A DNA stretch of 64,000 nt from an uncultured Erysipelotrichaceae bacterium. GTDB taxonomy: Bacteria; Bacillota_I; Bacilli_A; RF39; UBA660. The first letter of the stretch is position 1, and each line of letters begins with the position of its first letter. The notes below the pieces were generated by a model. That model saw only the letters and a program-made list of their open reading frames with translations, did no database searches and had not been told where the DNA came from. The position numbers and the translations under genes were made by a program. This document shows positions 575-35,902 of this stretch, in pieces. The stretch covers positions 8,413-72,412 of the forward strand of contig CACYLI010000002.1 of assembly GCA_902775285.1 (NCBI GenBank). The letters run 5' to 3'.

Positions 575-676
575 TTTTTCACCACTCCCTATCTTTATAA
601 TACTAATATACATTAATAATATTTAGTTTACAATAGAACTAGACACAACTTTTACAATAAAATTAAATATATTATT

Positions 677-1186
677 TTAGCTCTCTTCAATAAATGTTTT
701 ACTTTTATGAGGTTCATCAAATAAAAGACCTGGATAATTTTGTTGTCTTAAAGCTTCATATACCATTATTGCTACTGTATTAGACACATTAAGTGCTCTT
801 ACATTATCTGTCATTGGCATTCTTATACATCTATCTATATATGGTTTTAATATTTTAGGTGGTATTCCTGTACTTTCTTTACCAAAGAAAAAATAATAAT
901 TCTTATCTTTATCACTATAATCAAAATCACTATGTGGTTTATGTCCATACCTTGTTAAAAAGAAATATTCTCCTTTATTTTTAGCAAAAAATTCATCAAT
1001 ATTTTCATATACTGTATAAATACATTTATCAATATAATTAACACCACATCTTTTAATATATTTATCTTCTAAACTAAATCCAAGTGGTTTAATTAAATGT
1101 AAATGAGAATTTGTTGCTACACAGGTTCTCATAATATTTCCAGTATTAGCAGGTATTTCTGGCTCATATAAAACTATATTTATCAC
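677..1186 (-). CDS. trmL: tRNA (cytidine(34)-2'-O)-methyltransferase, SPOUT family
   Basis: IVLYEPEIPANTGNI.RTC, FGKESTG, R.LN.SNTVAI..YE..RQ motifs. Confidence 0.95.
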   Translation of the reverse strand: MINIVLYEPEIPANTGNIMRTCVATNSHLHLIKPLGFSLEDKYIKRCGVNYIDKCIYTVYENIDEFFAKNKGEYFFLTRYGHKPHSDFDYSDKDKNYYFFFGKESTGIPPKILKPYIDRCIRMPMTDNVRALNVSNTVAIMVYEALRQQNYPGLLFDEPHKSKTFIEES

Positions 1187-1210
1187 TCTTCATCACCAAT
1201 AAAATTATAA

Positions 1211-1237
1211 CAAAAAAATACTTCTTTATGAAGTATT
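1211..1237 (-). terminator. Intrinsic terminator closing the T7SS toxin operon (after DUF4176)
   Basis: Hairpin AATACTTC...GAAGTATT plus T-run on minus strand. Confidence 0.65.
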
Positions 1238-1571
1238 ATTCTATTTCTATTATTGGTTCTTCTTTTATAGGAGCTTCAGGTACATCTGGGTTTACTGTTT
1301 GTATTATTTGTAGCATAGACGATAGATTAACTTTAAATTTCTTTTCTTCTTCATCAGAAACTCCCATATGAACAACCTCTAAAATATCACTATGATTAAA
1401 TAGATTAGCCTCTCTATTAGAAAGCATTCCTTCTGGATATAAGCATCCACAATAATCATACATTTTACTTCTTTCATGATTATCATACATACAGAAACCA
1501 GTAATCATTAGTTTTTTTGTGCCTTTTTTTAATTTAACAATTGTTCCTAAAGGTAAATACTTTTCCTCCAT
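1236..1571 (-). CDS. DUF4176 family protein (T7SSb-locus associated)
   Basis: LPLGTIVKLK..KKLMITG...YDY.GCLYPEG...FNHSDI..V...G matches the DUF4176 pattern. Confidence 0.88.
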   Translation of the reverse strand: MEEKYLPLGTIVKLKKGTKKLMITGFCMYDNHERSKMYDYCGCLYPEGMLSNREANLFNHSDILEVVHMGVSDEEEKKFKVNLSSMLQIIQTVNPDVPEAPIKEEPIIEIE

Positions 1572-1572
1572 A

Positions 1573-2076
1573 CTACATCTCCTTATTTAAAATACTTGTT
1601 ACATCTGAATGTGTATAACTTCTTTCATCATTTGTATTTTTTAAACTATCTAGAACCAAATTTACCCCATCTTTTGTTTTTAATATATCAAGTATGCTAC
1701 TTGTATCATCAGATTTATCACAAATAGCATCTCCTGAACCAAGTTTTAATCTATCAAGATTATCTTCTTCATTTTCAAGAATATCATCATTTATTATAAT
1801 ATTATTTTTATCTAGTTTATTATATAAATCATATATTCTACTATCCATCATTATCATAATAGATTTTATTTTTTCAAGTCTTGTATATAGTTCACTTATA
1901 TCATTAAACAATATACCATTTAAGTTTTCTATATCATGAGAATCAATATTATTAATAGATGCAGATGACTTTAAACTAATAACTGATTTTTCTATTTCAG
2001 GTAAAAAATCTATTATTTTTTTAATTTCTTTTAACCCATAATAGAATTCTTCAGGAGATAAATTCATACTATCCAT
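1573..2076 (-). CDS. Hypothetical protein; helical N-terminal half, possibly WXG100/Lap-like hairpin
   Basis: 167-aa ORF abutting both neighbours, with RBS AGGAGG; no recognised family. Confidence 0.6.
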   Translation of the reverse strand: MDSMNLSPEEFYYGLKEIKKIIDFLPEIEKSVISLKSSASINNIDSHDIENLNGILFNDISELYTRLEKIKSIMIMMDSRIYDLYNKLDKNNIIINDDILENEEDNLDRLKLGSGDAICDKSDDTSSILDILKTKDGVNLVLDSLKNTNDERSYTHSDVTSILNKEM

Positions 2077-2316
2077 TTAAATACCTCCTTTTATTCTATT
2101 AGTTATACTATTATTAATAACTCTTAAATCATCAATCATATTATTAACATTTGTTTTTGATTTAGAAAGTACTTCTTTATCAATACTTTGTCCACTTACA
2201 ATAATATCATTTAAATAATTATTAGCATTTTCAATATAATCATTTAATGTAATTAATTTAGTATTTAAATCATTTATACATTTTATTAATTCTTTAGATT
2301 TATTATCTTCATTCAT
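2077..2316 (-). CDS. Small helical protein, possible T7SS targeting factor; shares a motif with the 201-aa ORF
   Basis: 79-aa ORF with RBS GAGG; segment NNYLNDIIVSGQSIDKE resembles SEYLKRVIINSEPFDRG of 23661..24266. Confidence 0.6.
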   Translation of the reverse strand: MNEDNKSKELIKCINDLNTKLITLNDYIENANNYLNDIIVSGQSIDKEVLSKSKTNVNNMIDDLRVINNSITNRIKGGI

Positions 2317-2325
2317 GTAAAACCT

Positions 2326-3027
2326 CTATTTTAATACATTTTCACTTTCAATATCTAATTCTCTAATAGAACTATCACTATATTCAATAACACTAACTTC
2401 CATATTTAATTCATCATTTAATAAATCTTTAAGTTCTTCACATTTTTTTCTAAAAAATGCAAGTCTAGCAAAATATTCATCTCTATTTTCCTTATTATCT
2501 ACTTTAGAAAATCCTGGAACCATTCTTGCTCCAATTACAAGTGAATCATTTGATGAAAAGAAATTTCTTGATGTTGATGGACCATAATTAATATCTATAA
2601 TACTTTTATCTTTATTAACATCTTCAAATATAACTTTTTTAAATGTATTCTTTATAAATGATTCAATTTCATCATTATATTCACTGCCTATTTTACTATC
2701 TAAAAAATCTTTTTCTTCTTTTGATAAAGCTTCAATATATATATTATTTCGAATATAAAAGAATGTTAACTCTTCATTACACAAATATTGATATAAATCT
2801 TGGTATCCTTCACTTACACCAAGTATTTGATGTTTAAATTTTCTAGAATCACCTATTTCATTATCTATTTGTTTTAAAGAAGTATTTTTAATTAAATATT
2901 TAAGAAACATATTATTATAAAAAACATATTCTTTTAAATACTCTTCTTTATCACCTAATTCATTAAAATAATTATAATTTAATAATGGAAATCTTGTAAT
3001 ATACATTTCTTCAGTTATTTTTTTCAT
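2326..3027 (-). CDS. Hypothetical protein, paralog of 3848..4561; candidate immunity protein
   Basis: Shared blocks TRFP, YLIKNTS.K, YQYLC, Y.RNN.Y, NYGPS, LVIG.R, VIEYS.SSIR; start placed at MKKIT from RBS spacing. Confidence 0.75.
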   Translation of the reverse strand: MKKITEEMYITRFPLLNYNYFNELGDKEEYLKEYVFYNNMFLKYLIKNTSLKQIDNEIGDSRKFKHQILGVSEGYQDLYQYLCNEELTFFYIRNNIYIEALSKEEKDFLDSKIGSEYNDEIESFIKNTFKKVIFEDVNKDKSIIDINYGPSTSRNFFSSNDSLVIGARMVPGFSKVDNKENRDEYFARLAFFRKKCEELKDLLNDELNMEVSVIEYSDSSIRELDIESENVLK

Positions 3028-3049
3028 ACTTAACATCCTTTCAATTTAT

Positions 3050-3058
3050 ATTATAACA
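3050..3058 (-). promoter_or_regulatory. Internal extended -10 promoter inside the putative immunity array
   Basis: TGTTATAAT on minus strand in the short gap before the AAAGGA RBS of 2326..3027. Confidence 0.5.
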
Positions 3059-3069
3059 TATTTTTATTA

Positions 3070-3840
3070 TCATAAACTTCTAACATCTTCATTTAATAAA
3101 AAATCTGTAGCATATTCAATAAATTCATTCATCTTCTTTGGATCATGAAACATATGATCTGCTCCTAAAATATCAATAAATTCAATACCATTTTTATTAG
3201 CAAATTCTTTTACTTTTTCAAATGATACTAATTCATCATGAGTACCTTGAAAAATCATTATATCTTCTGAATAATTACTAAAATCATATGTAGTAATATC
3301 ATTATTCTTTAAGTCACTCACAAAATCTGGAGTTAATCTCATTTTTTTATCAAATCCAACTAATATACTTTTACCACTCTTAAGTGCTTTTAATGATTCA
3401 TCATTAAGTATATTATTATTTAAAACTTCATACATGTTTATAGCTGGACATCTAAGTACTATTTTTCTAAAAGGATTAGGATTTTCAGAAATATATTTTA
3501 GTCCTAAATAGCCACCAAAACTTGTAGCATTTAAATAAATATTTTCTGGATTAAATGTCCTATAAATATAACTTAACATATCACTATAGTAATTCATACA
3601 ATCACTTAAACTAAGTTTTTGTCTTACATCTTTTCCATGGCAAGGTAAATCAAATGATATTACACATATATCATCATAACTATCTAACACTTTTTTTGAT
3701 AATCTTCTAGTCGCGGCATTTTCTTTATTACCTGCAAATCCATGGCAAGATAATATAACATTTCTAATATTACTTAAATCATTATAATATATTTTACATT
3801 TAATATTATTATTTTCATTTACTTCAAAATATTTTTCCAT
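3070..3840 (-). CDS. Alpha/beta hydrolase (paralog of 24751..25503)
   Basis: HGFAG, FDLPCHG, nucleophile elbow ATSFGG, GTHDELV (Asp), GADHMF (His). Confidence 0.9.
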   Translation of the reverse strand: MEKYFEVNENNNIKCKIYYNDLSNIRNVILSCHGFAGNKENAATRRLSKKVLDSYDDICVISFDLPCHGKDVRQKLSLSDCMNYYSDMLSYIYRTFNPENIYLNATSFGGYLGLKYISENPNPFRKIVLRCPAINMYEVLNNNILNDESLKALKSGKSILVGFDKKMRLTPDFVSDLKNNDITTYDFSNYSEDIMIFQGTHDELVSFEKVKEFANKNGIEFIDILGADHMFHDPKKMNEFIEYATDFLLNEDVRSL

Positions 3841-3847
3841 AATGCCT

Positions 3848-4561
3848 CTACTTCAAAGTATTAGTTTTACTAATATCTATATTTCTAATAGAAGAAGATG
3901 AATATTCTATAACTTGAACATTTACATCTAATTCATCATTTATTGTTTCTTCAAACATTTCACATATTTGACTAATAACATTCTTTCTTTCTAAGTATTT
4001 TTCTACTAATGAATCATTACTTAAATCATTTACCATTTCATCATATCTAAATCCAATTACTAAAGTTCCATTTTTTACATAAAATGAACTTGAATCAGAT
4101 GGCCCGTAATTTAAAGATGAATCATCACTTGTTTTTTCTTTTATTACTTTATTGAATGTACTTTTAATAAAATTTTCACTTTCACTATCAAAAGAATAAT
4201 TATTACTTAACATTTTATTATCTAAAAATGATTTTTCTTCTTCTGTTAGTCTATCTAAATATAAATTATTTCTAACATAGAAATAGTTTAGCTTATTACT
4301 ACATAAATACTGATACATATCTTTTTCATTATCCATTATAAATGGAATATCATAATTAGAACTATTTTGTAATAATTCTTCTATTTTTTTAATACTTGTA
4401 TTCTTAATTAAATAATCTACTAATAATGTAGTGTATAAAGAATATTCTTTAAAGAAATATTCTTTATCACTATCATTCATACTTTCATAATCATATGTTT
4501 CTAATTTAGGAAATCTAGTATTAAAGATATCTTCATTTAAAACTATTAAACTATCTTTCAT
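3848..4561 (-). CDS. Hypothetical protein, paralog of 2326..3027; candidate immunity protein
   Basis: 237-aa ORF colinear with 2326..3027 over its full length; start overlaps upstream stop by 1 nt. Confidence 0.75.
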   Translation of the reverse strand: MKDSLIVLNEDIFNTRFPKLETYDYESMNDSDKEYFFKEYSLYTTLLVDYLIKNTSIKKIEELLQNSSNYDIPFIMDNEKDMYQYLCSNKLNYFYVRNNLYLDRLTEEEKSFLDNKMLSNNYSFDSESENFIKSTFNKVIKEKTSDDSSLNYGPSDSSSFYVKNGTLVIGFRYDEMVNDLSNDSLVEKYLERKNVISQICEMFEETINDELDVNVQVIEYSSSSIRNIDISKTNTLK

Positions 4562-5121
4562 TATCTATTCATTCCCTTCATTTGTTCATCTATATCTATA
4601 ATATCATATTTACTTTCGTCATTTCCATATGAATTATTACTTAAGTAAGAACCAGGATTTAACTCTTCCTGTTTCAAGAAATTATATTCTTCTTCAGTTA
4701 AATCCTTGATTCTTATGTCACATAAACCATACTTATCATCATAATATAATATTAATCTACCTAACTCATAATACGATTTAATTAATGACTTAGGTTTAAA
4801 ACAAATATGCATATCTTTTTGATTATAAATAATACTAAAACTACCTGCATTTTCTACATTAATTGGGCCTGATTCAGAAAAATAAGAAGCAATATATTTT
4901 TTTTCTAGATCATTTATATCGGGTAATTCATAATCTGACTCTTCTATTCTATTTGATAATGCACAAACACCAGAGCAAATTTCATTACCAAGAACATATA
5001 AATCTAATTCAAATATATTATTAGTATCACCAAATCTAATTGAAAATACATTTGAATAATTATTACCTAGATTAAAGTATAATACAGATTCACCACCAAT
5101 TTTAATTTTTTCTTTATTCAT
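4561..5121 (-). CDS. Hypothetical acidic protein immediately downstream of the giant gene; candidate immunity to its C-terminal domain
   Basis: Start (MNKEK, 5121) overlaps the giant ORF stop, indicating translational coupling. Confidence 0.7.
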   Translation of the reverse strand: MNKEKIKIGGESVLYFNLGNNYSNVFSIRFGDTNNIFELDLYVLGNEICSGVCALSNRIEESDYELPDINDLEKKYIASYFSESGPINVENAGSFSIIYNQKDMHICFKPKSLIKSYYELGRLILYYDDKYGLCDIRIKDLTEEEYNFLKQEELNPGSYLSNNSYGNDESKYDIIDIDEQMKGMNR

Positions 5122-8100
5122 ATGACCACCATCCAATTAAATCTTTCAATTCTTCTTCAGTACAAGTATTTATTTTACCATTTTTCAACATATTTTGGAA
5201 ATCTATATTTTTCATTAATTCATCAAAAGCTTTTTCAGCTAATTGACTATTCGGTAAATAACTTAAAATATAGTTTTTTATGTCTTCATCTGTTGAAAAT
5301 ACATTAAAAACTTTATCTTTAATGATTATTGTTATTATAGATTCATATACTTTAGAAATTAATGTTAGATTATTCTCATCTACTTTAGCATAAACACTAT
5401 CTTTCATTCTTTCTTGCATTTGCATTAAGTTTATTTTTAATTCTGGATTTTCATACATTTCATCTAAATATTTATTTAGGCCTAAATTCTTTCCTCCATC
5501 GAAGTTAAACAATTCCTCTATCATATTTGAAATAGTTATATGAAAGAAAGTACTAGTATAACCAGCATCAGTTGAATCTAAAATCATTGTATTTATTAAT
5601 TCCTGCTTTACAATCATTTTATATTCTTTAGAATTGCTTGGTTTTATCGCTTCATCATTTGAAATCCTTTTACTAATTTCTTTTATATACCATTCAATAG
5701 ATGAAATTATAGGTGCAAGAGCATTTGAGTTAACTCTTTCAGAAGTTGGATACATATGAAATATTTTTTTATCAATATGAAATGTTTTTTTACTAGTTGG
5801 TGAGATATCATTTCCTAATATTTCAATAATAAATCTATAATTTCCATTAGCATTAGCATTAGCATCTACAAGTATTTTAAGACCTCTACTATACTTACTA
5901 CTAGAATATTTGTACTTTTCACTATTATTTTGTTGATTAATACATTTATCTATTGCATTCATATACAAATGCATTGTTGCAAGTCTAGCAATATTTCTTA
6001 TTTTATTTAAATCGCTTGAATCAATTATTCCTTTATTTTTCTTTATTTTTTGTAATATATCAATAATTTCTGTTTCATTTTGATAATTTTGTGTTAAATT
6101 TCCATTTTCATCAATAATTCCAGCTGAAATAAGTAAGCTTTCTAATCTATATTTTCCAGTAAGAGTATCTTTATTAGCACAATAATTTGATTGGCCTATG
6201 CTTTCTGCTATACTACTATCTATTTTTGCAATAATACTTTTTGCTTTTTCATTATTCTCTAAGAAGTTTTTCAAATCTGTATAAAGCTGATTATTCGTTC
6301 CATATCCACCATTTACTTCTATTAAATAATCACCATTTGGGGCCAATTTAAAAGTACCTTTAAAATCTCTTTTTTGTTCTTTTGCAATATTTAATAATTC
6401 ATCCAAATCTGCTTTATTAATTGAAACCGAATAATTCATTAAAACACTTTCAACTATTTCATTAGCGTGTTTTAAACAACCTATAATTCTATCTCCTTCT
6501 TTATGTCCTGACATCTCAATTATTATTCCATTTGTTTCAACTATCATATTTTCTGGAAAACCATTAACAATTGTATCAGATGATTCTATTATTCTTGTTT
6601 TTAAATTACTACTTGCTTTTGAAAAATAATCTACTATAGATGATTTTTGTAATCCATCCAATTTACGAGGACTTGAATTAACCGCACCAACATCTTCACT
6701 ATCATCAATCTCTATTATTGCTGATTGATTATGTTCACTAGATGAATTATTAGCTTCAATAATGTCACTTTCTATATAATAATGTAGTACTTCATCATTT
6801 TTCTTAACACCAAGTAGTTTTTCCATTAATGATTGTTTTGAAGATATTTCTGTTTGTTCTTTAATATAAGATTTTTGTTTTTCAGTTAAATAAACTTCTA
6901 TAGACTTTATAAATGTATAATCATTATCACTAATTGATTCTAATTCTTCTTTTGTTAGACTTCTTATAATTAATTCTTTTAATTTAATTTCATTATAAGA
7001 ATTATAATATAGATTAATCTTTTGTTCTAATGACATACTGTTTATAAATTCATTTACTATTTCTGGATTATCTACTATAAGATTATAGTATTCTAAAAGT
7101 ATTTCTGGATCAGAAGTATATTTTAGTATACTATTAGGTTCCATATTATTAAGTAATTCTATTAATAGTTCTTTATTATCTGTCAATTCAAGAGTATCTA
7201 AATTAATAATATTACTTTCAAGACCTCTTATAACTTGTAAATAATCTTTTTTAGCTATTAATTCTTTAATCTTATTTCTTGTTACTTGAATATTTTCTTC
7301 ACTATTCATTTCTAGATTTAATGAGAATATTGCACTATTATCTGAATATAAATCAGAGTATCTAATTAAAGCTTTATGACCCCAAGTAATAACAATTAAT
7401 CCATCTTCATTAGCACCAATAATAGTAGTAATATGAGCTCCACCTTCATTCCAATTAAAAGTTGAACTATAATCATTAGTTTCATCTAAGTTGTATAATA
7501 CTAATTCATGAGCATCTTTTGATACTACTTTATTTCCTTTTTTATCAGTATCCATTTCAACTCTTTCAGTTAAACTTAATATTTCACCATTAGCAAGTCT
7601 TCTCTTAATATCATTTTTTAATAAATCAATGTCTACTGAACCATCTTCATTATAACTAAGAGTTAATTTAGAACCTTCTGTTTCTATTCCATAGTGTCTT
7701 AAGTAATCAAATGCTATTTGATAATATCCATCTATATTACAAGCATATACTTGCTCTTTAGAATTTGCTGTTCTAAATTTACCATCTTCATTTATTATAT
7801 TTAGTTTTCTCTTACCATCTGTATCAATAGTAAATATTCTTCCATTTGGATTTGTATCTGATGAGTTAAAGAATAAATACATATCAAATAGTAAAGCTCT
7901 AGTATTTAATACTCTTACTCCATTCTCATATTCATACATGTCAAACCCAAATCTACGTTTAAATCCTTCAGGATTGTTTCTAAATATCCATAATATTACA
8001 TTGCATAAATTTGCATAAGAACATGCTCCTTTTTGTGAATCTATAATGTTATTAATTGTTTCAACAATTAAACCTTCTGTCATATTATATTTACTTGAGA

Positions 8101-11100
8101 AATGATCAACAAATCTTCTAAATGAAGGAGTATTAATTTGAGAAGGACCAATTTGTCCATAATTATTTCTTCTAATAAATGAATATATTCTTTCAGATCT
8201 TTTTATTTTTTGATTTGTTCCTAAAGTAGATCTTTTATTTCCATGTCTATGTTTTTCAAAGAAAATTTCTTTTTCAATTAATCCAGTATTAATTCTTGAT
8301 TCTATTAAATCACTCATTTCTGAATCAAATTCATATCTTAAATCAGAAGTAATTCTTCCAACAAATGAAGTATCCTTAGTAATTAATTCTTCTTTAATTA
8401 AATCTATTACTTTTGCACCTTCACTTAAACATAAAGTAAATAACTCAGAATCAGTATATAATACTTTATTATTATATTTATATTCATATACTTTTCTTCC
8501 ATCTATTGTAAGTACACCTAAATAAGTTAATTCACTATCTCCTATTTTAATATTAAATCTATTAGCATGTAATAATCTAGGATTTTCTTTAATATAATCT
8601 AGGATTTTAGTATCATTAGTACTTAAATACAAATCTATTAAATTATTACCATCAATATATTTAATATAGTCATTATTAGTTTGATATAAATATAAGATAT
8701 TACTTGAAGTTAATGAATTAATATTATTAGACATAAATACTTTATTAAGTATTTGATTATTATACTCTCTAATTCCTGTTTTTATAATTAATGAAACAAA
8801 ATCTACATCTATATTTCTATATAATTCATTAAATTCATCAGTACTTAAACTATTTAGGAAATCTATTACATAATTAGATATGAAACCATTATTTAAATCT
8901 GTATTTACCTTATCAAGGAATCTTATCTTATATTCATTATTACTATAAGAATTAATTAATTTTTTTATGTTATCTATTGATTTAATATTATTAACAAAAT
9001 TTGGGAAAGCAGATATTGTATTAGCTAAAAAATCATCAATCTCCATATTACTTAGAATAGTATCACTATCTAAATTTTCTCTTGTTAAATCTATTAAATC
9101 ATATTTATGTTCATTAACAAATTCTTTATCTTTTATTAATTCATTAAATATTTCATCAGTTGTATAATCTAAAATGAAATATACTTTCTTATAATTACCA
9201 TCAGCATCCAATAGTGATCTAATTAGTTTAATATCTTTTATTTCACTAATTAAATCGATATATCCTTCATCAATAAATAATGAATAATTATCAATTTGTA
9301 ATACTCTAGATGCTACTTCATCAGCAGTTAAATCAAATTTAGAGTAACTTGGTGCTATTAATCCTAAATTGTTTTTAACAAATGTATTACTTTCAAATAA
9401 AGTTTTGAATACTTCTTTTGGTATTTTATTAATTAATTCATAATTAAAATGTATATTTGAAAGAATATCTGAATCTATAGATGTTATACATTTAGTAAAT
9501 AATTCTTTATCAAGACTATTTAATATTCTAACAATTGATTCTCCAGGTATTGTTGATAATCTTTCAATTGTATTGTCAAAATCAATACCACTATTTAGTT
9601 TATTTTGAATATCCAATTCAATTATTACATTTTGAATTATACTATTTAATCTTTCTTCAAACTCTAATTTATTAGAATCTGTATTATAACCTTGAATTAA
9701 TCTATTAAACTCTCTTGTTGTAAGTAATCTTTCTTTAACACTCTCATCTATTTCTCTTCCGTTAAGTATATTATCTATTATATTGTCTGATATATTAGTA
9801 GGTTTAGAATCAAGTTTTGAAATTAAATTGTTAATAGAATTAACTATTCTACTATAAATTTTAGAAATAGAATTTGTAATTGTTGATAACTTGTTATTAA
9901 TGCTATTTTTAAGATTAATTAAAGATTTAGTTAATCTTATTTTTTGAGAATCTAAAATTTGATTACTATCTACTTGTTTCTCTATATCAGTAACTATATT
10001 ACTAACTCTTGTTGCTATACTTTCAGTTGCACCAATTTCTACTAAATTTTGTGCTTCAATTATTTTTTGAGTATTCATATCAATATATTCTGATACATTT
10101 ACTCCAATATTTTCTAGAGTTAACAACTCACTAGGAGTTAAAGATTCTAATATTCGTGTTACTTCAGTTCTATCACTAGATTCTAATAACTTATTTATTT
10201 TAGTAGCAATTGTATTACTATAAATAACATATTGGTTATTTTCATCTACTCTAATTCCAAATGAAGTAACAAGTACAGATTTACCATTTGCATCTGTTTC
10301 ATAAATGTTAATATTTAATGCATTATTCTGTGTCTTATTGTTTAATCCAATAGTAATTGTTTTATTATTTCTTCCACCTGTTAATAAATCTTCTTGTGAA
10401 GCAACATCTCTCATATATTGTTGAAGAGTACCTATATTTCTATTTCTAACATTATCTATTCCAAATAATGTAGGTAATGCTTCTAATAAACCTGGAAGAC
10501 CTTTAATATCTTCTAGTTTTATATTTCCTAAAAGTGAAAGACTATCAAATAATTCTAAATCATTTTCTGTTCTGCTTTCAATTAATTCTTCTGTTAATTC
10601 TTTAATGAAATAATCACTTACAGATAATAATGGACTTATTCTTGAATCTACATTTAAAATAGCATCAGTATTACCTTCATTAATAATTTTAAATATAGCT
10701 TTTTGTTTTGCAAGTTTAGCTTTATCTATATTATATTTAATGTTTCCATCTGGATTAGGTAATACCCATCCATAGAAGTATGAACCAAATTCATCAATTA
10801 TATCTCTTACTTCTTCACTAATATTATCATTTACACCATCCATAAATTCTAATCTATAATTAAATGGTGAAATTCTAGATTCTTTTGTTACATTAGCAAA
10901 CTCTGAATCATGCCAATATTTAGATTTGATTTGTTCACTAGATAAATACATAAATCCTGTAGTTGGACGTCCTACTTTAATATTATAATAATCTGGATGT
11001 CCCAATGGAATTGTCATATCTGGAACAATCAAACTTCCATCTTCAAGTATTACATACATAGCAGCATGACTATTATAAACATAACTATTATCATCATACA

Positions 11101-14100
11101 TTAATCTTTGTACTACAATTGATTCTGGTTTAAATCCTGCAGCAATTAACATTTCACTATATATTTGAGCCCATGTAGCGCAAATGCATCCAGTCTTTTC
11201 AACTTCATCAATAGTTAGTTTTCTATTATATTCACTTTCATAATAAGCTGAACCTTCTTTACTTAGTGAATATCTATAAAGAGCACTATAATCTAACTTT
11301 TTACCTAATTCTAAGTATATTAATCTAGCCTTTTCAAACTCACTCATTTCTGGTTTAATTTTAGCTAAAACTGATTCTTTTAATGTAGATTTATTAACTT
11401 CAGAATATTCTCTAATCATAGAGCCTTCATCAATTACTTCACTTGAATTCAATATTATACTTTCATCGTTAATTTTATTTTCAATATTTTCTTCATTTAG
11501 CTCAAATGTTCTTTCAAGAGTAGCTTCTTCATCAAATAAACTATCTATTCCTTTTTGAATTATATTGTTTAATTTAGTTTTTCCATCTTCTGTTAATTTG
11601 CTTGCAATTCTTTCAATTTCATTAGAACTCTTACTCATTAAATATTCATATAAATCATTTTTTCCAATATCATTAAAGAATATGTCAGTAAGTAAACTAC
11701 TGTTTTCTGATTTATTTATTAAAGCATCTATATGTAATGATGTAGCTTTATAATAAATTACAGTATCTGTTAATTGATCAAAACTTAATTTATTTAAGAA
11801 TTGAGAATATTCTGTATTTGAATCATAATACTCATTAGCATAACTTAATAATTGGTCTACATTATCGTCAAAGTATTTAATAACACTTTCTGGACTCATA
11901 TGAGCATTTCTGACATATCCAATTTTTTCTCTTTCTCCTAAGATATCACTTTCTACTAATAATCTCATTTGAGATGTAGTTAAATTTTGCCTAAAATTAT
12001 TAAAATCTTCACTACTAAATGCATCATATAATTCAATCATTGCATATGCAAGTTCATTTCCAGTTGTAGCACTATTTACAACATCTAGTTTTAATTCATT
12101 ATTAATATCATCATTTCTTATTAATAATAGTTTTTGTTCTGTCGTTAAATTAGATAGTGTTTGTAAAAATTCTTCTTTACTTATTTGATTTCTTATTATT
12201 TCTAAAATAGTATTTACACTTCTTGCACTTCTTACTCTACTTAATACCTCATTAGCTCCCATTTCATCAATAAGACCACTAATAGTTTCATGTGATAAGT
12301 AATTCTTTAAAATATAATCTAAATCTATACTATCATCTGTTCTTATTTCAGTAGCAAGAGTTACTATATCCATATTAGCTAATTCTTGATATCTTACACT
12401 ATTTTCAGCTATAGTTCTAAGTAAAGGTGTATTTAAATTTGTTGTAGTAAATCTACAATTATATTGTGTTAAATCACTAAATTTAATTTCGTGTTTCATT
12501 CCCCAAGAAACAACTATTACACCATCTTCAGTTAAACCTACAATTGTTGTAACATGGCCAGCGCCTTCTTTCCAATTTAGTATTTCAGTATTTCTTTCTC
12601 CATCTAAATTATGGAAAATAAGATTCTTTTGTGATTGATCAACCACTCTAATAGTTTTTCCATTTTTATCTTTTGTATTAATTGTCTTAATTCTTTCTGT
12701 TAAAGATAAATGTTCTCCATTTAAGATTCTTCTTCTTAAATCCTGTTTTAATCTATCTATATCTAATGATCCATCTTTATCAAAATAATTTAAATTTGCA
12801 TTATTTTCTATTTCAATTCCATAATCATTTAAATACTTAATAGCTGCAGAAGTTAGTATTCCACCTCTACTTGCATAGACTTGTTCTTTATCAGTACAAT
12901 ATTCAATATTACCAAATCTATCAACTTTTATTTTTCCATTTTCATCAACTCTAGCATTTATGATTCTTTCATTAGTTACGGGATCTATACTGAATATTCT
13001 AGGATGATGTGCTCCATCATAAACACTTAAATCAGTAGAATTCATTCTTATATACATATCCATAAGTAGCATTCTATAATTAAGTGTTTTCTTACCATTC
13101 TCAAATTCATACATATCAAATCCAAATGTTTTCTTAAATGCAGAAACATTATTTTTAAATGTACTAAATATTACATTTGTTAAATCAGCATAACTACAAG
13201 CACCTGCTTCATTATCTATAACATTTAATAAAGTGTTAATAGTTTCTTGTTCACTTAAATTATATTTATTTTTAAAATGTTCTACTAATCTAGTGTAACT
13301 TCCAATATCAATTCCACTATCTACTCCATCTTCAGTTACAAAATTTCTAGTTCTATTAACTTCTCTAACTCTTTGATTTGTTCCAAATTGTTTTCTTGTA
13401 TTGCTATCTCTTAAATGTTCATAGAAATTTGTATCTTCATTAACATAAGTATCAACTATACTTAATACTTCTGATTTTTCATCCATATTAATAGTAAATT
13501 TACCATCTTTAACTTCAATTTTCCCTAAGAATCTATCACTTGCAAGAATAGAATCTAATCTACTTTCAGATAAGAATTCATCAGCGACTTCATTATATAA
13601 GAAGTCTCTTGAATTAGCAGTAATTGAAGCTATATTAGTTGTTGAATAATACATACTTCCATTTATATTATAAACATATATAGGTTTTCCATTATTATTG
13701 ATAATATTACTTAAACCAATTTTACATTTACTTCCATCTGCTCTATTAACTGTATAGTAAACACCTATTAGATTTCTAGGATTACTAACATGTTCAATAT
13801 AAGAATCATATTTTGAATTAATAATATATATTGCTTTTTGTAAATTAGTTAAATAATCAATAAATTCACTATTACCAATACTTTCTAACTCGACTAATTG
13901 CTGATATGTTAATCTAGAATATATTACATTTCCATAGAATTCTTTTATCTTTAATATGTTATTTGCATTTAATAAAGGTATTAAATTCTTTCTACCATAT
14001 TCAGTCAATCCAGTTCTAAAGAACAATTCATATTCTTTAACTTGTTCTACTGTTAAATCATTAAACAATTTATTAACATCTATATTAGATTTTTTATCTA

Positions 14101-17100
14101 TAATTCTAACAATTAAATCCTCAATATTTTCTTTAGATAATAAATTATTTGAAATAACTTCATCTAACATTTTTTCATTTAAATGATCAATAATATTTTC
14201 AGTATTTTTAAATCCACTAGAAAGAATATTTCTAACTACTTCTATATCACTTATTTTATTTACAAAATCAGCATATGTCTGCATATCATTTACAGAATAA
14301 ATTATTCTTTGTAGTGATTCTTTTGGCATACTACTAATTATTCTATTAACATTCAAATCTCTACTTATAACTTCATCAATAAATGATGTTTTAGAGAATA
14401 AATCTATAAATACTGGATTTTCTATTATTTCATAAATAGCTTCATCACTAAGAGTAGATGTATCTATTGACTCACTTTGATAGTATTCTAATACTCTATT
14501 CTTAACGCTTTCATTACTTAATTTATGAATATTTGTTAATAGTGTTATTCCACATCTATCTAATACTTCATCAGTTAATTCAATATTTTCAAGCATTCTA
14601 TTAACTACTAGTGAAATATCTGGTTTTAATACAGGTACTTCATCTTGAGAAGACTGTTCATCATGTATAACTTCATCGTTAAACTTAATATCACTTGCTG
14701 CACGATCATCCATAGTAGAACGATCACTTCTACCATCTATTACAGGAGCATTTGTATTTCCTGGTGCATTATTGTTTTCTGGTGTATTATCAACTACACC
14801 AAGCATTTGTCTTAAATTATTTGGAATTAATCCCATTAAAACAGTGTCACCACTTATAGCTCTTAATACTTGTGATGTTTGTGTATCACTTCCATTATTT
14901 ATTCCAATTATTTTACCATTTGTTAGTTTTTCTATTTCAGTATTATTTTTATCTATAGTTTCTTGAAGATTAGAAACTTGTTTTTCTAATTTTTCTATTT
15001 CAGTATCATTGCTTTGTATTTCTTTTTCAATATTACTTAATATAGTAAAATCATTTTCTTTCTTAAGTCTTTCTCTTAATTCAACATTCTTTTGTTCAAT
15101 ACTTTCTAACTGTGTTCTATAATCTTCTAGTATCGTATTTATTCTTGAATTATCTTCACTTAATAGTGTTGCAATTGTATCTCTTGAATCTAAAGTTGTT
15201 TCAAGTCTCTTACCAAGAACTTCAATTTCTCTATCTAATTTTTCTTTTAATACTTCTAAACTTTCAATATCTTTATTTAATTTATCAAACTCAGTATTAT
15301 TTTTTTCTTCTGGATTAATATCTTGTATTATTTGATTATTTTCATCTAGTTTTTCATTAACCTTTTGTAAAGTTAGTAAACGTTCTGCTAATAGTTTTTC
15401 ATTATATAAAAGTGTATCATTTATTTCTTGTTCAGTTGTAGATTTTAAAAGAATATCATCATTAATACTAGTTATGTTTTCAAATAACTCTAATTGATGT
15501 TTTAATTTTGATATAGTATCTGTATTTTCCCTTGTTGCTAGAGAACTATCGTTTTCAATACTACTTTCAAGATTTAAAAGCGTATCTCTAATTGAAAGAT
15601 AATTATCATAAACATAATCATTAGATTTATTTAATTCGCTTAATAATTCTGATATTTCAGCATGAAGATTTATTAATTTAGATTCAGCTGCAATGTTTAA
15701 AATACCTTCTTTATTATTATTAAGCAATTCTGATACTTGATCATTAGTTAGTCCTAAATCTCTTTGTAATTTTATATACTGTTCTCTTTTTTCTTTTAAA
15801 GAATCAAGTGTTTCTTGTCTTTCAGTTAAAATATTAGCAATTCTATCATCAGTAAGTGCTGCAATACTATCATGTCCATAATTTAAAGATTCATTTCTTG
15901 CATTAATAATTGCTTGCTCTAAATTTAAAGCTGCATATGCTTCTTCTAAAGCATAATCACTATATTTTATTTTTTCACTATTGATTTCTCCATTGGCAAC
16001 TAATTGATCATATTTGGCTTTTAGTTCTGGATTAACTTCTGCTACAGCAATTTTTTCTTTTAAATTATTTCTAATTTGATTCATGAAGCGTAAATCACTT
16101 CTTAATTCTTGAGATGTAAATAATTTTATAATATTAGATCCACGATATTTATTATTTAAATATTTTAATGCAGACGGACTATCCAAAACTGCATATGATG
16201 CTAAGTCTATTCCAACATTTACAATATTTAAACCTTGACTAGCAACTCCACCTGCTACAGACATTACTCCACTAGTTATTGCACCATAAAGTCCAGCTTT
16301 TAATACTGCATTTGGATCAACTACAACACTTTCTCCGGTAAATACACTAGATAAAAATGCATCATAAACTTCTTGAACACTTTCTTCAAAACCTTCACTA
16401 AGCATTTTTGTAAATACTCCAGCAAGTCCTTTGGCACCTTCAAAGCTTTCATTTAGCATACTTAATCCTGGTAATTTACCTAATACAGCTTCCATAGTTG
16501 TTTCAGACAAACCAGATAATAAACCATATATTGTTGCGGTTGCTTCATCCATTCCTTCAATCATAGCTTGTTGTTTTGTTCCACCAGCTGCACTTAATCC
16601 CATTGTTGCAAAAGATGCAAGAAATTGGAATGATTTTAGTGCTGTCTCAGGAAGTCCTAAACCACCTGTAGCTACAGATATTCCTAATGTTGCCACAATT
16701 GAAGGTAACATATTACCTATACTGCTACCAATTTCATATTCATTTATTAAATAAGATGCAAAATCATCATCAAGAGTTACATCATTTAGGAATTTTTCTA
16801 TTTTATAATCTTTAGCAGTTTTCCTACCATCAGCAGCAAATATATTAATAAAATTATCTGCCCAACCATTAACTCCATCATATAATGAGTAACCAGCCAT
16901 ATAAGCAAATTTTCCAGCATCACTCCAAAAACCAGAGGTATTTTCAAAAGCTTCCTTCATTTTAGCATATCGTTCTTGCCCTAATTCATAACCTATAATT
17001 TTGGCACCAGTATCATTAAATATACTAAATATTTCTGTTGCTTCATCGATTCCATATTTATTCATAAGATATGAATAACATTGAAGTGCTTGCTCTGTTG

Positions 17101-20100
17101 TATAGTTATAATTATTTTCTTTACTTCCAGCTACTAATGCATTTAGATTATCAGTATATTTCTTTATATTTCCAGATACATCTAATCCAGTTGCATCGAT
17201 TCCATTAGAAATACAATATAATGCTATTTGGTCTTTATTCTTTACTAATTTGCCATCTTTATCATAAAAATACATTTGAAATGTAGAAGTTTCTGGATCA
17301 GGAATTTTTACAAAATGATCAACGCCTATATCTCCTGAAAATAAAGATTTATCTTGTGCATTCAAAATACATTTTATTTGATCAGCTGCAGTTTGTTCAA
17401 TTTTTCGGTTTAAAATTGCATTTTCAAGACCATATTCAATTACAAGACCATACTTATTCTCAAATATTTCTCTTTGAGAATCAGTTAATCCATCCGCTCC
17501 CATTCTTTCTGGTTCAATATATTTATCTTTTAATATTAATTTACTTAATGCTTCTCCTGCAGGATCATGATATTGTGCATTAAATGCATTTCCTATAACA
17601 GATAAAATTTTAAACCAATTAGAATCTGAAGTTGCTTTATTTATCGCAGATAAATTTTCAGATTGTTGTTCTTTTGTTTTTTCTAAAATATAATTATCAA
17701 CATCAAATGAAAGTTGATTGTATTCAGCATTATTAGCAAGTAAATAATTATGAATATCATCAGATGAAATAAATCCATCAAGATTTCCTGAAGACATTTC
17801 ATTTATTCTAATCATATCCAATCTTGAAACATTTCTATTGTATTCAATATCTTTTAATTGTTCTTCCAAAGTTGCTACTTTATCGTCTATTTCTACTGCT
17901 TCAGGATGATTTTCAAAAAATTCAACTGTTTGTTTTCTTGTTGCATATACATTTAAAGTTGTTTCATCTCGTAAAGCTTGAATTTGTTTTGCCTCTTCTA
18001 ATTCCTTGCTAACACTTAAATACTCATTATTTAGTTCAATAGATCTCATATATGAGAATATAAGTTGTTCACTAGAACTTAAAAAGCATGCATTATCTAC
18101 TATTGTTTTAAGGTCTTTTTCTATACTAGCTAATTCACTTTTTTGTTCACTACTTAATTCTTGTTCACTAGCTTCAATTCCTTTTAATGTTTGGTATTTT
18201 TCAATCTTTGATTGTGCTTCTTGCGCTTCTTGTGCTTCTTTATATAAAGCAGAATTTGGATCTAATTCATCAAGATGTAAAATAGCATTTTGAACTTGTA
18301 AAGCATGTGAATTTTTATAATAGTTATCAATATATTCTTGATTTTCTTCAGAAATTACTGGTGTATATATAGTTATATCATCATTATTTGAAGATAAAAC
18401 TTGTGTTTCAAAATTAGTGCCACTAATAATTCTAAGTACAGTTTGCATTTCACGAGAAGAAGCCATATACATATTAGCATTTGAAATATTATAATATGCT
18501 AATTGATCAACAACAGAAAACTTATTTGCATTAGAATAAATTGAATCAATTTTTGATTCTAATTTTTCTAACTCTTTTGTTTCAGAGGTTGATAATGTTG
18601 TTTTATCTTTTAATTCTAAATATCTTTTGTATTGACCTTTTGCACTTATTATTTGTGTTGCTTGACTATATAATTCTTGTTCTTCTTTTGACAAAGTTCC
18701 ATTTGCATATTTTTCTTGCCATTCGCTATAATTATTAATAATTTCTTGAGTTTTGATTTTAGGTAATACTTTTTGAGCATATTCAGAAAAATATAATTTA
18801 CTTTCTTCTTCTGTTAATCCATCTTGTTTTATTTTATTATACTCTTCTAATTTCTTTACATCTTCTTCTGTAGCTTGACCTAATGCAATTCGAGACATAA
18901 TATCACTAATTTCTAAATTATTTTCAGACATAGTATATAGTTTATTTGTTAATAAAACTATTTGTATATCTTTATTACTTACTGCATAACCATATTTTGC
19001 TAAATTATTACCAAATTCAAAATATAATCTCGAATTTTCCATATTTGAAAATGCTATTTGTTCTACTTGGCTAAATGGATTAATATTAGATTCTATTATA
19101 TCCATATGACTATTAATTCTATTATATTCTTTTAATTCTTCAGGAGTTAATTCTCTTTGATTTTTAAAATCTTGAAGTTCTAAAAATCTATTATATTCTT
19201 TTCTAGAATCTATTATAACTTTAGCTCTTAAGAATTCTTTTGTTTCTGCATCTGTTAATTCATTATTATTATACTTTTCTTGCCATTCTTCATAATTATA
19301 AAGAATACTTTGTGTTTTAATAGCTGGTAATATTTTTGTATATTGTTCACTATATACATTATTTTGTTCTTCTGTTAATCTTGGTTTTTCAATTTTATAT
19401 AGTTCTGTTAATCTTCTTTCATAATTTGTTCTATCTCTATCTGATAAATGTGAATTTGCTAGTTTATCACTTATTTCTTTTATTTCTTCTTGAGCATTAT
19501 AATATGATATTGCTTGATTACATATACTATCTGTTAACAATACAACATCTAAATCTTTATTTTCTACTGCATAACCATATCTATTCAAGTTATTTCCAAA
19601 TTCCATAAACATTCTTGCGTTTTCCATATTTGAAAATGCAAGTTGTTCTACTTGACTAAATGGATATGCTTTTGTTGTTGCTGTATCAGTATCTATTTTA
19701 GATTCTAATCTAGATAATTCATTTTTTTCTTCAGTAGTTAATTTTTCTTTATCTTTTAGTTCTAAATATCTTCTTGCATCAACAATTTCAGTTGCTTGTA
19801 AATAGATTTCTTCTTCTGCTTTTGTTAATTTACCATTATTATATTTCTCTTGCCATTCTTCATAATTATAAACAGCAGTTTGAACTTTAACAGCAGGTAA
19901 GATTTCATTTGCATATCTTCCCATATATAAATTTGATTGTTCTTTTGTTAAAACAACTGGTTTTGCATCTTTAAGTCCTTCTAATTCAGTTTCATACTTT
20001 TGTCTTTCACTTGCAGTAAGACTAGTATTATTTTGAAGTTCTCTTTCTAAAAATACTTTTCTATAATAAGCAGTTGATTGAGAATTCATATCATCAACTA

Positions 20101-23660: not shown

Positions 23661-24266
23661 TCACATTGTCATACCATGAGTAGGACATGCTGGCATTCTT
23701 GCATAATTATTATAAGCATTATCTGCTTTTATTCTTAATGCATTTATTTCATCTGATAAAGCTTGTATATCTGCATTTAATTTATCTATCTCATCATTTA
23801 ATTTTTTATTCAGTTTTAGACATTTTTCTAACATTTTAACTAAATTATCTTTATATTTTTTTAGTGAACTTGATAATTCTTGACATTTTCCTCTATCGAA
23901 TGGTTCAGAATTTATTATTACGCGCTTTAAATATTCACTAATTGCATCTAAAGCTGATGAATAATCTCCAAGTATATCAATAAACTCAGAAAGTAATGGT
24001 AAAAATTCTTCATAATTAGCTCGTGTTTCTTCATCTGTTGCTAATTGTTCTTGTTTTGTTTCTTGTTCTGTTATTTTTTCTTCTTTTTGAGTTTCTAAAC
24101 TCTTATATAAAGAATATGCAGCATTTCTAGCTCCACAAGTACAAATAGGAGTATAAACAGGAGTATTCCCCCCTTTTTTTCCACTACCTTTTCCTCCACT
24201 TTTTGCTGGAGCATTAGTGCCATCTACTACCATTCGAAATTTTATATTATTATGAATACGTCTCAT
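23661..24266 (-). CDS. Coiled-coil protein with Gly/Lys-rich N-terminus and terminal Cys/His motifs; likely T7SS effector partner
   Basis: 201 aa, RBS AGGTGAGG, directly upstream of the giant gene; CTCG near N-terminus and CPTHG at C-terminus flank long heptad helices. Confidence 0.7.
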   Translation of the reverse strand: MRRIHNNIKFRMVVDGTNAPAKSGGKGSGKKGGNTPVYTPICTCGARNAAYSLYKSLETQKEEKITEQETKQEQLATDEETRANYEEFLPLLSEFIDILGDYSSALDAISEYLKRVIINSEPFDRGKCQELSSSLKKYKDNLVKMLEKCLKLNKKLNDEIDKLNADIQALSDEINALRIKADNAYNNYARMPACPTHGMTM

Positions 24267-24377: not shown

Positions 24378-24695
24378 CTATCTTTTTTCTATTTGATTTT
24401 CTTCTATTAAAGTATATTCTCTATTAGCTTCTTCTATTAATTTTGAATACATTTGATTATATAATGTAATATTATTTTTATCACTAAAATAGCCTAAAAA
24501 TCTAAATATAGCAAATATTGTACTTTTAGGAGTACGATTAATGCTTTCTTCTACTGATAAAAGAGTAAAGATATCTTCAGCTATTTTTTCATCTTTTTTA
24601 TTTCCAGAAGATGCATTTTTTTCTTTTAAAGAAGTAGCTCTTTTTCTCATATCACTAATTAAACTATTCAAATTTAAAATATCTTCATCTTTCAT
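24378..24695 (-). CDS. Hypothetical helical protein
   Basis: ORF with GGAGAG RBS before MKDED; no recognised family. Confidence 0.6.
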   Translation of the reverse strand: MKDEDILNLNSLISDMRKRATSLKEKNASSGNKKDEKIAEDIFTLLSVEESINRTPKSTIFAIFRFLGYFSDKNNITLYNQMYSKLIEEANREYTLIEENQIEKR

Positions 24696-24750
24696 ATTTT
24701 CTCTCCATATCAATTAGATTCTATCATAATAAATCTTTTTTTTCAATTAT

Positions 24751-25606: not shown

Positions 25607-26224
25607 TTAAAAATTGTAATTTGAAACAGCAGTACTAATACTTGTAGAAACAGCATTTAATGTCTCTTTATAAATTTTACTCTTAGACATAAATGTATTA
25701 AATGCATTTTGAGCTTTATCTCTACCAGTTCCAGCAGTCCAGTTTTGCATTATTTTTTCATAATACATTCTTACATTTGAAATAAATCCATCCATTGCAC
25801 TATTAGCAGCATCAACTTTTGCTTTTCCTTCATTAGCTTGTGCAGTAATGTTGATTGTATCTCTAGTATCGCTGTATTCTGGTAATTTAGATTTTTCTTC
25901 AGCTACAAGTGGTGTTAGAGTTTCTAAAACAGCGCCATTAGATTTTTGAATATCTCTATAATTAGCAGCTATTTTTGTTGAATCAGAAGCTAAGCTTACT
26001 AGTGCATTTCTTATTTCAATCATACCATTAAATACTGTAACGATATTATTGATTTGAACACCAGCATCTTTTCCTTCCCAACATCCTTTAAGTACATTGA
26101 TAGCAGTACCTAAATTATTAATAATAGTATCTGCACTTGAATCCTCTGTACCCATTACTCCATTTTTGAATAATGCAACTGCATCTTCATACAAATTTTG
26201 TACACTTTGAACTTTATGATTCAT
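25607..26224 (-). CDS. Tandem (double) WXG100-like protein
   Basis: Two ~100-aa helix-turn-helix halves with central WEG and WTAG motifs, each ending in an A..NY-like segment; directly downstream of essC; strong AGGAGG RBS. Confidence 0.8.
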   Translation of the reverse strand: MNHKVQSVQNLYEDAVALFKNGVMGTEDSSADTIINNLGTAINVLKGCWEGKDAGVQINNIVTVFNGMIEIRNALVSLASDSTKIAANYRDIQKSNGAVLETLTPLVAEEKSKLPEYSDTRDTINITAQANEGKAKVDAANSAMDGFISNVRMYYEKIMQNWTAGTGRDKAQNAFNTFMSKSKIYKETLNAVSTSISTAVSNYNF

Positions 26225-30886: not shown

Positions 30887-31132
30887 CTACAAAAGTATTA
30901 ACTTCGTTCCATTTCTAATATCTGTATTTTTAATTAAATCATTATTATTATAAACATCACCTGTATCTGTATTTAATAACATATAATTTCTTTCGCTATC
31001 TATAGAGTCAAATAAAGTTGTATTTAATAATTTAGAAATATTGCCTATTTTTTCATTAACAGGTATAAATACTTCATGTGTTTCATCTAAAGATAAAATA
31101 TATATATTTACTAAAACTTTATTATCTAGCAT
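30887..31132 (-). CDS. YukD/EsaB-like ubiquitin-fold T7SS protein
   Basis: 81 aa directly upstream of essC; EVFIPVNEKIG... and C-terminal IRNGTKLILL typical of EsaB/YukD. Confidence 0.75.
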   Translation of the reverse strand: MLDNKVLVNIYILSLDETHEVFIPVNEKIGNISKLLNTTLFDSIDSERNYMLLNTDTGDVYNNNDLIKNTDIRNGTKLILL

Positions 31133-31212: not shown

Positions 31213-31635
31213 TTAAATGAAGTTTCTTTTTTCCTTTAAATAAAACAATAATTCTAATAAAATAATACCTAAACTATCTATAAAAACATCTATTGTTTTA
31301 CCACTTCTACCTATTACAAATAATTGATGTATTTCATCACTAATCGCATATAATAAACATATTAAAAATGTAAATAATAAAATATGTTTTAAGTCTATAT
31401 TATATTCTTTTAATAATAAACTAACTAATAAAGCCAAAACAAAATATACTCCCATATGAGCAACTTTTCTTATAATCGGATCAATTATATCTATGACTGA
31501 TTCATCTTCTGTAGTAAGTCTACTTACAAATCCTCTGCTTTGATTCTCTGATTCATTTCCATTTAATGAAGAAAAGTAAAAAATTAGTCCCATCCATAAT
31601 ATAATAAATACTATTAATATTATTTTTTTAGTCAT
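31213..31635 (-). CDS. VanZ family membrane protein
   Basis: W..LIFYFSS, RKVAH...Y..L, YAISDEIHQLFV.GR....DV.IDS.G. Confidence 0.9.
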   Translation of the reverse strand: MTKKIILIVFIILWMGLIFYFSSLNGNESENQSRGFVSRLTTEDESVIDIIDPIIRKVAHMGVYFVLALLVSLLLKEYNIDLKHILLFTFLICLLYAISDEIHQLFVIGRSGKTIDVFIDSLGIILLELLFYLKEKRNFI

Positions 31636-32041: not shown

Positions 32042-32103
32042 AATAATTATATTACTTTAAAAGTCTTAATTCAATTAAAAAGACATTTAAATGTCTTTTT
32101 TAA

Positions 32104-32421: not shown

Positions 32422-32507
32422 AATTAACAACTCCTTTTCATGAGTATTCTATGTATTATTATAAAAAATGAATAGGTATATAAAACAAAAAGTAGATTAC
32501 TCTACTT

Positions 32508-34230: not shown

Positions 34231-34231
34231 A

Positions 34232-35821: not shown

Positions 35822-35902
35822 ATCAACACCCTACTTTACTATTACAAGTATATCATAATAAAAAATCATTGTAAATTAAAAAAATTGTTCTATTAGAACA
35901 AT

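Follow-up and report, generated by a model that had tools for sequence, protein, structure and literature searches.

A giant, probable polymorphic toxin associated with type VII secretion that appears to have been extended in frame at its stop codon

How does a single gene come to encode several toxin-type enzyme modules, and what might the genes that follow it say about the order in which those modules were acquired? The question is raised by a stretch of 64,000 nucleotides (hereafter, the window) from an uncultured Erysipelotrichaceae bacterium (contig CACYLI010000002.1, positions 8,413 to 72,412). The window contains an open reading frame (ORF) for a protein of 6181 residues, which we call the giant, beside the genes of a type VII secretion system (T7SS). 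An earlier note on this DNA had proposed that cassettes of toxin domain plus immunity gene were inserted one after another at the toxin/immunity junction, so that the downstream genes repeat the domains of the giant in mirror order. We favor, with a probability of roughly 0.55, a looser account in which the giant is a T7SS-associated polymorphic toxin that was extended in frame at its stop codon, with duplications and relocations besides. The giant would, as we infer, be secreted and toxic and be bound by the products of neighboring protective genes.

The domain order given in the earlier note is confirmed by hidden Markov model (HMM) searches, catalytic residues, and structure modeling (Table 1): two papain-like modules, 1 and 2, enclose a transglutaminase-like (TG) module, and a C-terminal domain (CTD) without relatives follows module 2. 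Self-comparison of the giant reveals a single long internal duplication, in which residues 3179–3742 match residues 4927–5449 at 22–43% identity. A papain HMM built from other loci only finds exactly two significant copies, at residues 3454–3734 (E 1.7e-57) and 5176–5443 (E 1.7e-62). Two extra papain fragments (residues 2193–2265 and 4002–4167) that came from an iterated HMM score below zero bits with the clean HMM and were rejected as profile drift. The cysteine and histidine of the papain family are at least 90% conserved among 32 sequences and are kept in both window copies. The AlphaFold model of module 2 (predicted local distance difference test score, pLDDT, of 91) has the Cys motif at the beginning of a helix (46–59) and the His within a strand (242–250). 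Its best structural match is IdeS (Z 8.1, root-mean-square deviation 3.8, 165 residues aligned), followed by UfSP, staphopain, streptopain, and C39, and papain-fold peptidases form the great majority, by title, of the 50 matches listed. Because this Z score is middling and the best Foldseek match reaches only E 1.8e-3, the assignment is fold-level evidence only, and on that level both modules are predicted to have a papain-like (clan CA-like) cysteine peptidase fold.

The TG module has a Cys-His-Asp triad (C101, H139, and D155 of the alignment) from which none of the 15 aligned relatives deviates. The window copy matches DUF553, "transglutaminase-like", under the cut-off (E 1.3e-3, 18.7 bits against 20.5), and Transglut_core matches three of the 15 relatives, at best with E 3.7e-6; among 400 other genomes of the order, 30 have the module. 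For the CTD, neither 1.84 billion representative proteins nor the ESM Atlas yielded a relative. Sequence searches of the PDB with papain-1, TG, and CTD returned nothing meaningful, and Pfam gave no match for any giant module, for the first downstream gene, d1, or for the second, A. For d1, no match was found in 5.8 billion proteins of near lengths, and 400 genomes yielded weak, implausible matches only. ORF calls, Pfam, and the identity between the paralogs A and A' (41%) likewise bear out the downstream order d1, A, alpha/beta hydrolase, A'; the length of 187 residues given earlier for the d1 product is close to the two actual alternatives in Table 1.

The evidence that carries our reading lies at the stop codon of the toxin gene. 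The window and two other loci, L001 and L002, have a common papain module, A gene, and downstream SpoU methylase gene, so the three loci share the same downstream flank. In the papain module, in A, and in SpoU, the DNA of L001 and L002 is 81–94% identical (93.5% for SpoU), and the papain copies of L001 are 80–84% identical to those of L002. The L001 toxin ends with "...EKTSNISST*", whereas the homologous "...EKTSNVGSSQ" of L002 continues in frame past this stop ("...EKTSNVGSSQIFD...") for 962 further residues, an extension that comprises another papain module (papain-3) and a Transglut_core domain. Altogether, the interval from the conserved papain module to A is ≈3.6 kb longer in L002, and an additional gene, X230, is part of it; the L002 contig ends ≈1.1 kb after A. 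L001 aligns to giant residues 4639–5446 and then stops, and the CTD and d1 of the window occupy the junction at which the L001 toxin stops. One SpoU-anchored site is therefore found in three states: empty in L001, filled with papain-3, Transglut_core, and X230 in L002, and filled with the CTD and d1 in the window. A polymorphic toxin in the sense of Zhang et al. 2012 has a C-terminal toxin region that varies among related strains on a conserved scaffold, with immunity linked to it, and the three loci do differ at the tip on a shared papain/A/SpoU frame. In-frame accretion at the toxin/immunity junction, as the earlier note had proposed, is supported by these sequence comparisons. The direction of the difference, gain or loss, we infer. 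Its position makes d1 a candidate immunity gene for the CTD.

In the mechanism that we propose, a new unit of toxin domain and protective gene would be fused in frame to the toxin gene where its stop codon lies. Recombination at the 3' tip would sometimes extend the reading frame rather than replace the tip; the older warhead would remain upstream in the protein and not be displaced, and several enzyme modules would be kept in one polypeptide instead of a single tip being swapped. Because units would be joined at the stop, the newest protective gene would stand nearest to it, as in classical loci. The papain modules would also have been duplicated inside the gene and protective genes relocated, so that the mirror would be imperfect. 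As likely pairs, the papain modules would belong with proteins of the A family, the TG module with u2_111 (a small protein encoded upstream of the giant), and, by position only, the CTD with d1.

The first of these pairs is the best documented. A scan of species-representative genomes with an alignment of A returned 31 loci, of which 28 contain a papain module (the exceptions are L003, L026, and L027). In 22 of the 28, papain is the last toxin domain and A is the next gene, in toxins that range in length from 276 to >2400 residues. Papain as the sole recognizable C-terminal domain, with a dedicated A adjoining, is the signature of a toxin. In an order-wide table of 390 genomes, which are kin and hence not independent, 24 have both papain and A, seven have papain only, two have A only, and 357 have neither; in one of those counted as papain only (G357), an HMM finds an A-like ORF. 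In Listeria portnoyi, a true LXG domain (E 7e-12) is fused to the papain module and an A gene comes next (L031), a fusion that points to T7SS export for the papain module. Gene neighborhood therefore strongly supports the papain module and the A family as a toxin/immunity-type pair. Where the toxins are separate genes, papain modules and A genes are equal in number (6:6 in G075 and 2:2 in G252), and a single A may cover several papain modules elsewhere. The model of A is confident (pLDDT 92), and its fold has no clear analogue in the PDB (best Foldseek E 0.28, best VIA Z 4.1). A predicted complex of papain-2 with A, with alignments as input, scored 0.02, a value that counts neither for nor against binding.

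One further arrangement of these genes stands apart from the fused toxins. In G075 (L114, G075:C3:56000-75999), four papain-module toxin genes of ≈700 codons each are interleaved in tandem with three A genes, a "separate genes" counterpart of the fused architecture.

For the TG module, the partner that recurs is not the hydrolase to which the earlier note had assigned it. A second-round HMM of the u2 family, built from seven seeds, recovered more members at E 4e-17 to 2e-7; an Atlas search with u2_111 gave no usable match. In L052, L053, L055, L056, L057, L058, L060, L063, and L137, among which L053 and L055 are close kin, TG is the last recognizable domain of the toxin and a u2-family gene comes directly after it. 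Counted over the 12 TG loci from genome searches, to which L137 is additional, the gene is present in nine and directly follows the toxin in eight; the HMM search found no member in L059, L061, or L062. This pattern suggests that a small protein of the u2 family (≈90–110 residues) is the conserved partner of the TG module.

The hydrolase appears to be a lineage-specific companion. The downstream copy, d3, matches Abhydrolase_1 with 50.4 bits against a cut-off of 25.8, and Ser107, Asp202, and His229 are invariant in a three-sequence alignment. Five hydrolases (the upstream copy u3, d3, and those of L118, L137, and L119) form a clade with support of 96/95; a TG-bearing toxin is encoded in the loci of four of them, and the remaining one is in a T7SS cluster cut off by the contig end. 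With the exception of d3, every member of this clade has a u2-family gene as its neighbor. No hydrolase occurs in any of the 12 more distant TG loci. A metagenome scan gave no match with a single hydrolase sequence and 80 loci with an alignment as query; a link with a toxin or with a T7SS cluster is seen for the three closest only, and the other 77 of 80 have no toxin context. The view that hydrolase and TG are unrelated (0 of 12 loci, no genome co-location) was revised after the TG-linked clade was found. Possibly, the catalytically intact hydrolase would serve as an enzymatic immunity protein.

Two other loci bear on the order of domains and genes. The G148 toxin (L110 and L111, G148:C32:1-22402) is an open frame of at least 6816 residues, cut at the 5' end and larger still than the giant. 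Its papain modules number at least five, with Transglut_core standing after the fourth and before the fifth, and an ADP-ribosyltransferase (E 2e-16) is near the C terminus. Downstream of it are an ADP-ribosylglycohydrolase (E 2e-67), then A, and then a gene for 358 residues (X358). An ADP-ribosylglycohydrolase is known logic for reversing an ADP-ribosyltransferase toxin. The L119 toxin has the order TG, a divergent papain module (HMM E 1.4e-6 with filters off), and ≈520 residues of C-terminal sequence, followed by genes for 81 and 79 residues, an A-like gene, a u2-family gene, and a hydrolase. Both loci fit a rule of "last in, nearest". X230, X358, and further downstream genes that were compared have no similarity to the genes of the window.

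Several observations weigh against our reading, or at least against a pure stack. The u2-family gene lies upstream of the toxin, inside the T7SS cluster, in the window and in L054. The five papain modules of G148 are 39–66% identical and all have the Cys motif, and this 93%-complete genome has a single A; A need not, then, be present once for each module, and it may be that papain modules in internal positions are not toxins. Papain-to-A ratios elsewhere are 2:1 (L001 and G177) and 1:2 (L018), so papain modules and A genes do not track each other in copy number. In L011 and L018, a terminal ADP-ribosyltransferase is followed directly after the stop by two A genes and then by housekeeping genes, and no glycohydrolase was found in these loci. 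Common descent may be the reason why L119 has the order of the window, and the two would then not be independent cases. In the best tree, A' groups with an A of Solobacterium (91/91) and not with A, and a single clade of A and A' is not rejected (approximately unbiased test, p 0.14, on 13 of 36 rows). The giant has no Pfam match to LXG at E ≤ 0.1, and many contigs are cut at the 5' end of the toxin.

The Solobacterium gene comes from a small contig of a metagenome-assembled genome (L003). At 659-5519, a hydrolase gene is followed by an A-family gene with an 87-residue zinc-ribbon-like N-terminal extension, between BspA-type leucine-rich repeat (LRR) proteins, on a contig of 5.5 kb without a toxin. 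This hydrolase falls outside the toxin-linked clade, and the two genes may be an orphan immunity pair.

The G148 toxin, with its five papain modules interspersed among TG and ADP-ribosyltransferase domains and its single A, also suits another explanation, in which internal papain modules are not warheads and act instead as self-processing peptidases that cut the giant into effectors, much like the cysteine protease domain of MARTX toxins, and A keeps them inactive in the producer. A conserved linker precedes each papain module, and in the passages that treat internal Tox-PL1 domains, Zhang et al. 2012 (PMC3482391) propose such a role. We regard this as a possible but unlikely explanation of the window, given that papain is the sole recognizable C-terminal domain with a dedicated A in 22 loci; the two roles are not exclusive.

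A strict mirror, as the earlier note had it, would require four insertions at the junction and the pairs CTD/d1, papain-2/A, TG/d3, and papain-1/A'. By arithmetic, one of the 12 possible arrangements of {c, a, h, a} is the mirror, and the window has it, an order that is suggestive and not significant by itself. The A-like gene followed by the TG partner and hydrolase in L119 mirrors TG followed by papain, members of the hydrolase clade go together with TG toxins, and an insertion at the junction is what L001 and L002 display. We nonetheless consider strict nesting improbable. The conserved TG partner is upstream, beside a second copy of the hydrolase, and L054 (TG, papain / A) also has its TG partner upstream. 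Papain-1 and papain-2 are sisters (Shimodaira-Hasegawa-like approximate likelihood ratio test, 94) inside a clade with the modules of L001 and L002, which argues for duplication in place and not for separately acquired cassettes. L001 and L002 have two to three papain modules for the one A seen, and G148 has five for one. Taken as a whole, the earlier interpretation is thus partly supported.

That the mirror order is mere coincidence, in a mixed immunity island with accessory genes gathered by duplication and horizontal transfer, is quite improbable, despite a chance of one in 12 that is not small, the grouping of A' with a toxin-less, LRR-flanked pair, the 77 hydrolase loci without toxin context, and the polyimmunity loci known from the relevant passages of PMC3482391, because the L001/L002 junction falls exactly on the stop codon, the layout of terminal domain, own gene, and A recurs in the window, L002, and G148, and L119 repeats the order.

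The locus may be compared with known systems. The T7SSb LXG toxins of Bacillota carry an LXG targeting domain at the N terminus, a C-terminal toxin domain, a downstream immunity gene, and small helical partner genes. The giant gene resembles them in lying beside EssC, WXG100, and DUF4176 genes, and the papain module is itself C-terminal in the true LXG protein of L. portnoyi, with A after it. The giant differs in that no LXG domain is detected, in that its 6181 residues hold four enzyme modules against one tip, and in having protective genes on both sides. MARTX proteins are likewise giant toxins with a variable array of effector modules and a cysteine protease involved in release; they use type I secretion, act on eukaryotic targets, and have no immunity genes.

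Closer to the proposed mechanism are CdiA and Rhs, for which Zhang et al. 2012 (PMC3482391), in the passages on tip recombination, describe how recombination of the 3' tip leaves strings of immunity genes, newest first, or orphan cassettes. The present locus agrees in that the newest immunity gene would stand nearest the stop and variation is greatest at the tip (three states at one junction); it differs in keeping the older toxin domain upstream in the frame, neither replaced nor orphaned. The same source mentions a Streptomyces protein of 13,652 residues that combines several peptidase and ADP-ribosyltransferase domains. Like the giant, such actinobacterial multi-toxins unite several toxin-type enzyme domains, some repeated, within a single secreted protein of great length; they differ in phylum and in domain families, and the passages on these proteins in PMC3482391 make no statement on the order of immunity genes relative to that of the domains. 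In the WHIX "double-blade" effectors of type VI secretion systems, as summarized by Fridman et al. 2025 (PMC12135965), one effector has two toxic domains that each need their own immunity protein. As set out there, one domain lies on each side of the secretion domain, and the effector gene has the immunity gene for the N-terminal domain upstream and the one for the C-terminal domain downstream, without stacking. Multi-domain toxins and newest-first immunity strings are thus in print, in passages of PMC3482391. Outside supplements and subscription journals, a search of the literature for T7SS toxins with nested or multiple domains found no T7SS case, neither a mirror order nor in-frame warheads retained with reversed immunity genes.

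Table 1. Features of the window discussed in the text.
Feature	Position in window	Strand	Details
SpoU methylase, housekeeping anchor	677..1186	-	common to L001 and L002
Three more co-oriented genes: 79 aa, 167 aa, DUF4176 (111 aa)	1236..2316	-	Pfam DUF4176 E 2e-25
Paralog A', 236 aa	2326..3036	-	41% identical to A
Alpha/beta hydrolase d3 (downstream copy), 256 aa	3070..3840	-	Abhydrolase_1 E 3e-13
Paralog A, 237 aa, immunity-type partner of papain module	3848..4561	-	
d1 ORFan, 191 aa (TTG) or 186 aa (ATG at 5121, overlaps stop of giant)	4561..5136	-	
Giant toxin ORF, 6181 aa	5114..23659	-	uninterrupted 18.5-kb frame, DNA ≈24% GC
CTD	5117..7309	-	aa 5451-6181
Pre-papain linker + papain-like module 2	7310..8881	-	aa 4927-5450; Cys5213, His5409
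Transglutaminase-like (TG) module	10670..11428	-	aa 4078-4330; Cys4160, His4198, Asp4214
Pre-papain linker + papain-like module 1	12425..14125	-	aa 3179-3745; Cys3488, His3702
Gly-rich hydrophobic domain, ≈200 aa, no Pfam match	16160..16762	-	aa 2300-2500
201-aa helical protein, immediately 5' of giant gene	23661..24266	-	Pfam LXG E 0.008, below cut-off
u2_111, small protein of TG-accompanying family (proposed TG immunity, "TGi")	24378..24713	-	HMM searches; only copy in genome
Alpha/beta hydrolase u3 (upstream copy), 250 aa	24751..25503	-	57% identical to downstream copy d3
205-aa protein, WXG100 domain C-terminal	25607..26224	-	Pfam WXG100 E 3.5e-7, above cut-off
EssC-like FtsK/SpoIIIE ATPase + FHA domain (T7SS motor), 1522 aa	26296..30864	-	Pfam FtsK_SpoIIIE E 3e-41, FHA E 1e-4

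The assembly behind the window comprises 1.44 Mb in 28 contigs with ≈24% GC, and every relevant gene of the locus is on the minus strand. In the 5' to 3' direction, the giant ORF is preceded by an 81-residue gene, the EssC-like gene, the WXG100 gene, hydrolase u3, u2_111, and a gene for 201 residues, and it is followed by d1, A, hydrolase d3, A', genes for 79 and 167 residues, DUF4176, and SpoU. The earlier note had missed the upstream hydrolase copy and the three co-oriented genes after A'. The EssC-like and WXG100 genes lie directly upstream on the same strand as the giant gene, as in a T7SSb cluster, and the 205-residue WXG100 protein has an ortholog in L118 with 71% identity. The 201-residue protein, with its weak LXG-like match, is a possible targeting partner of the giant. 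DUF4176 is a T7SS-associated family, named in the title of PMC12482557 as an LXG-toxin stabilizer. The 167-residue protein is similar to the N terminus of a 439-residue protein in L001. Among ten ORFs scanned beside EssC, Pfam recognized no EssA, EssB, or EsaA; this T7SS may thus represent a reduced form. The rest of the genome has no additional copy of the papain module, A, TG, CTD, d1, or u2_111. A scan for DNA repeats detected nothing besides the paralogy of A and A'. Two other genomes of the same genus, both ≈93% complete (G212 and G309), have neither papain module nor A, which makes the toxin locus accessory within the genus.

Other parts of the giant and of its surroundings deserve mention. 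Its Gly-rich hydrophobic domain is also present in L004, L008, L010, L012, L016, L018, L022, L024, and L025, in a family of toxins of 887 to >6000 residues, and may be a membrane-insertion or translocation element. The N-terminal third is occupied by six to seven helical repeats of ≈190 residues (residues 630-1876, window 18031-21769) that are mutually 25–52% identical and may form a stalk or spacer. At the extreme N terminus (residues 9-29, window 23572-23635) is a zinc-ribbon-like motif, Cys-x2-Cys...Cys-x2-Cys, with a Pfam match to Zn_Ribbon_1 at E 0.09 only; such a motif is unusual in a T7SS substrate. A gene for 81–97 residues without a Pfam match (window 30887-31132) adjoins EssC in most of ≈15 related loci, before EssC in the window and after it elsewhere, and probably belongs to the core of this T7SS variant. 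Beyond the T7SS genes, on their upstream side (window 31213-37207), are VanZ, NUDIX, TelA-like (Halogen_Hydrol), VWA protein, and Ffh genes.

In the accepted view, polymorphic toxins diversify by replacement of one C-terminal tip; here, the tip appears to have been extended in frame. Such extension would yield proteins of 6000–6800 residues or more with up to seven recognizable enzyme domains. Three testable families are defined by the analysis: the papain-fold module with A, the TG-like module with its partner of ≈90–110 residues, and the toxin-linked hydrolase clade. We put forward only tentatively, as a conjecture more likely to fail than to hold, a general stack rule for the small-genome, low-GC gut Bacilli, by which cassettes are spliced in at the stop, older warheads stay active, and the protective genes read the domains backwards. 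If this rule were true, gene order could assign cognate pairs, and A, the small TG partner, and the catalytic alpha/beta hydrolase would be three undescribed protective families. Should every retained module be active, a single event of secretion would deliver several activities, so that resistance would be harder to evolve in the target cell, and the locus would record the history of its own acquisitions.

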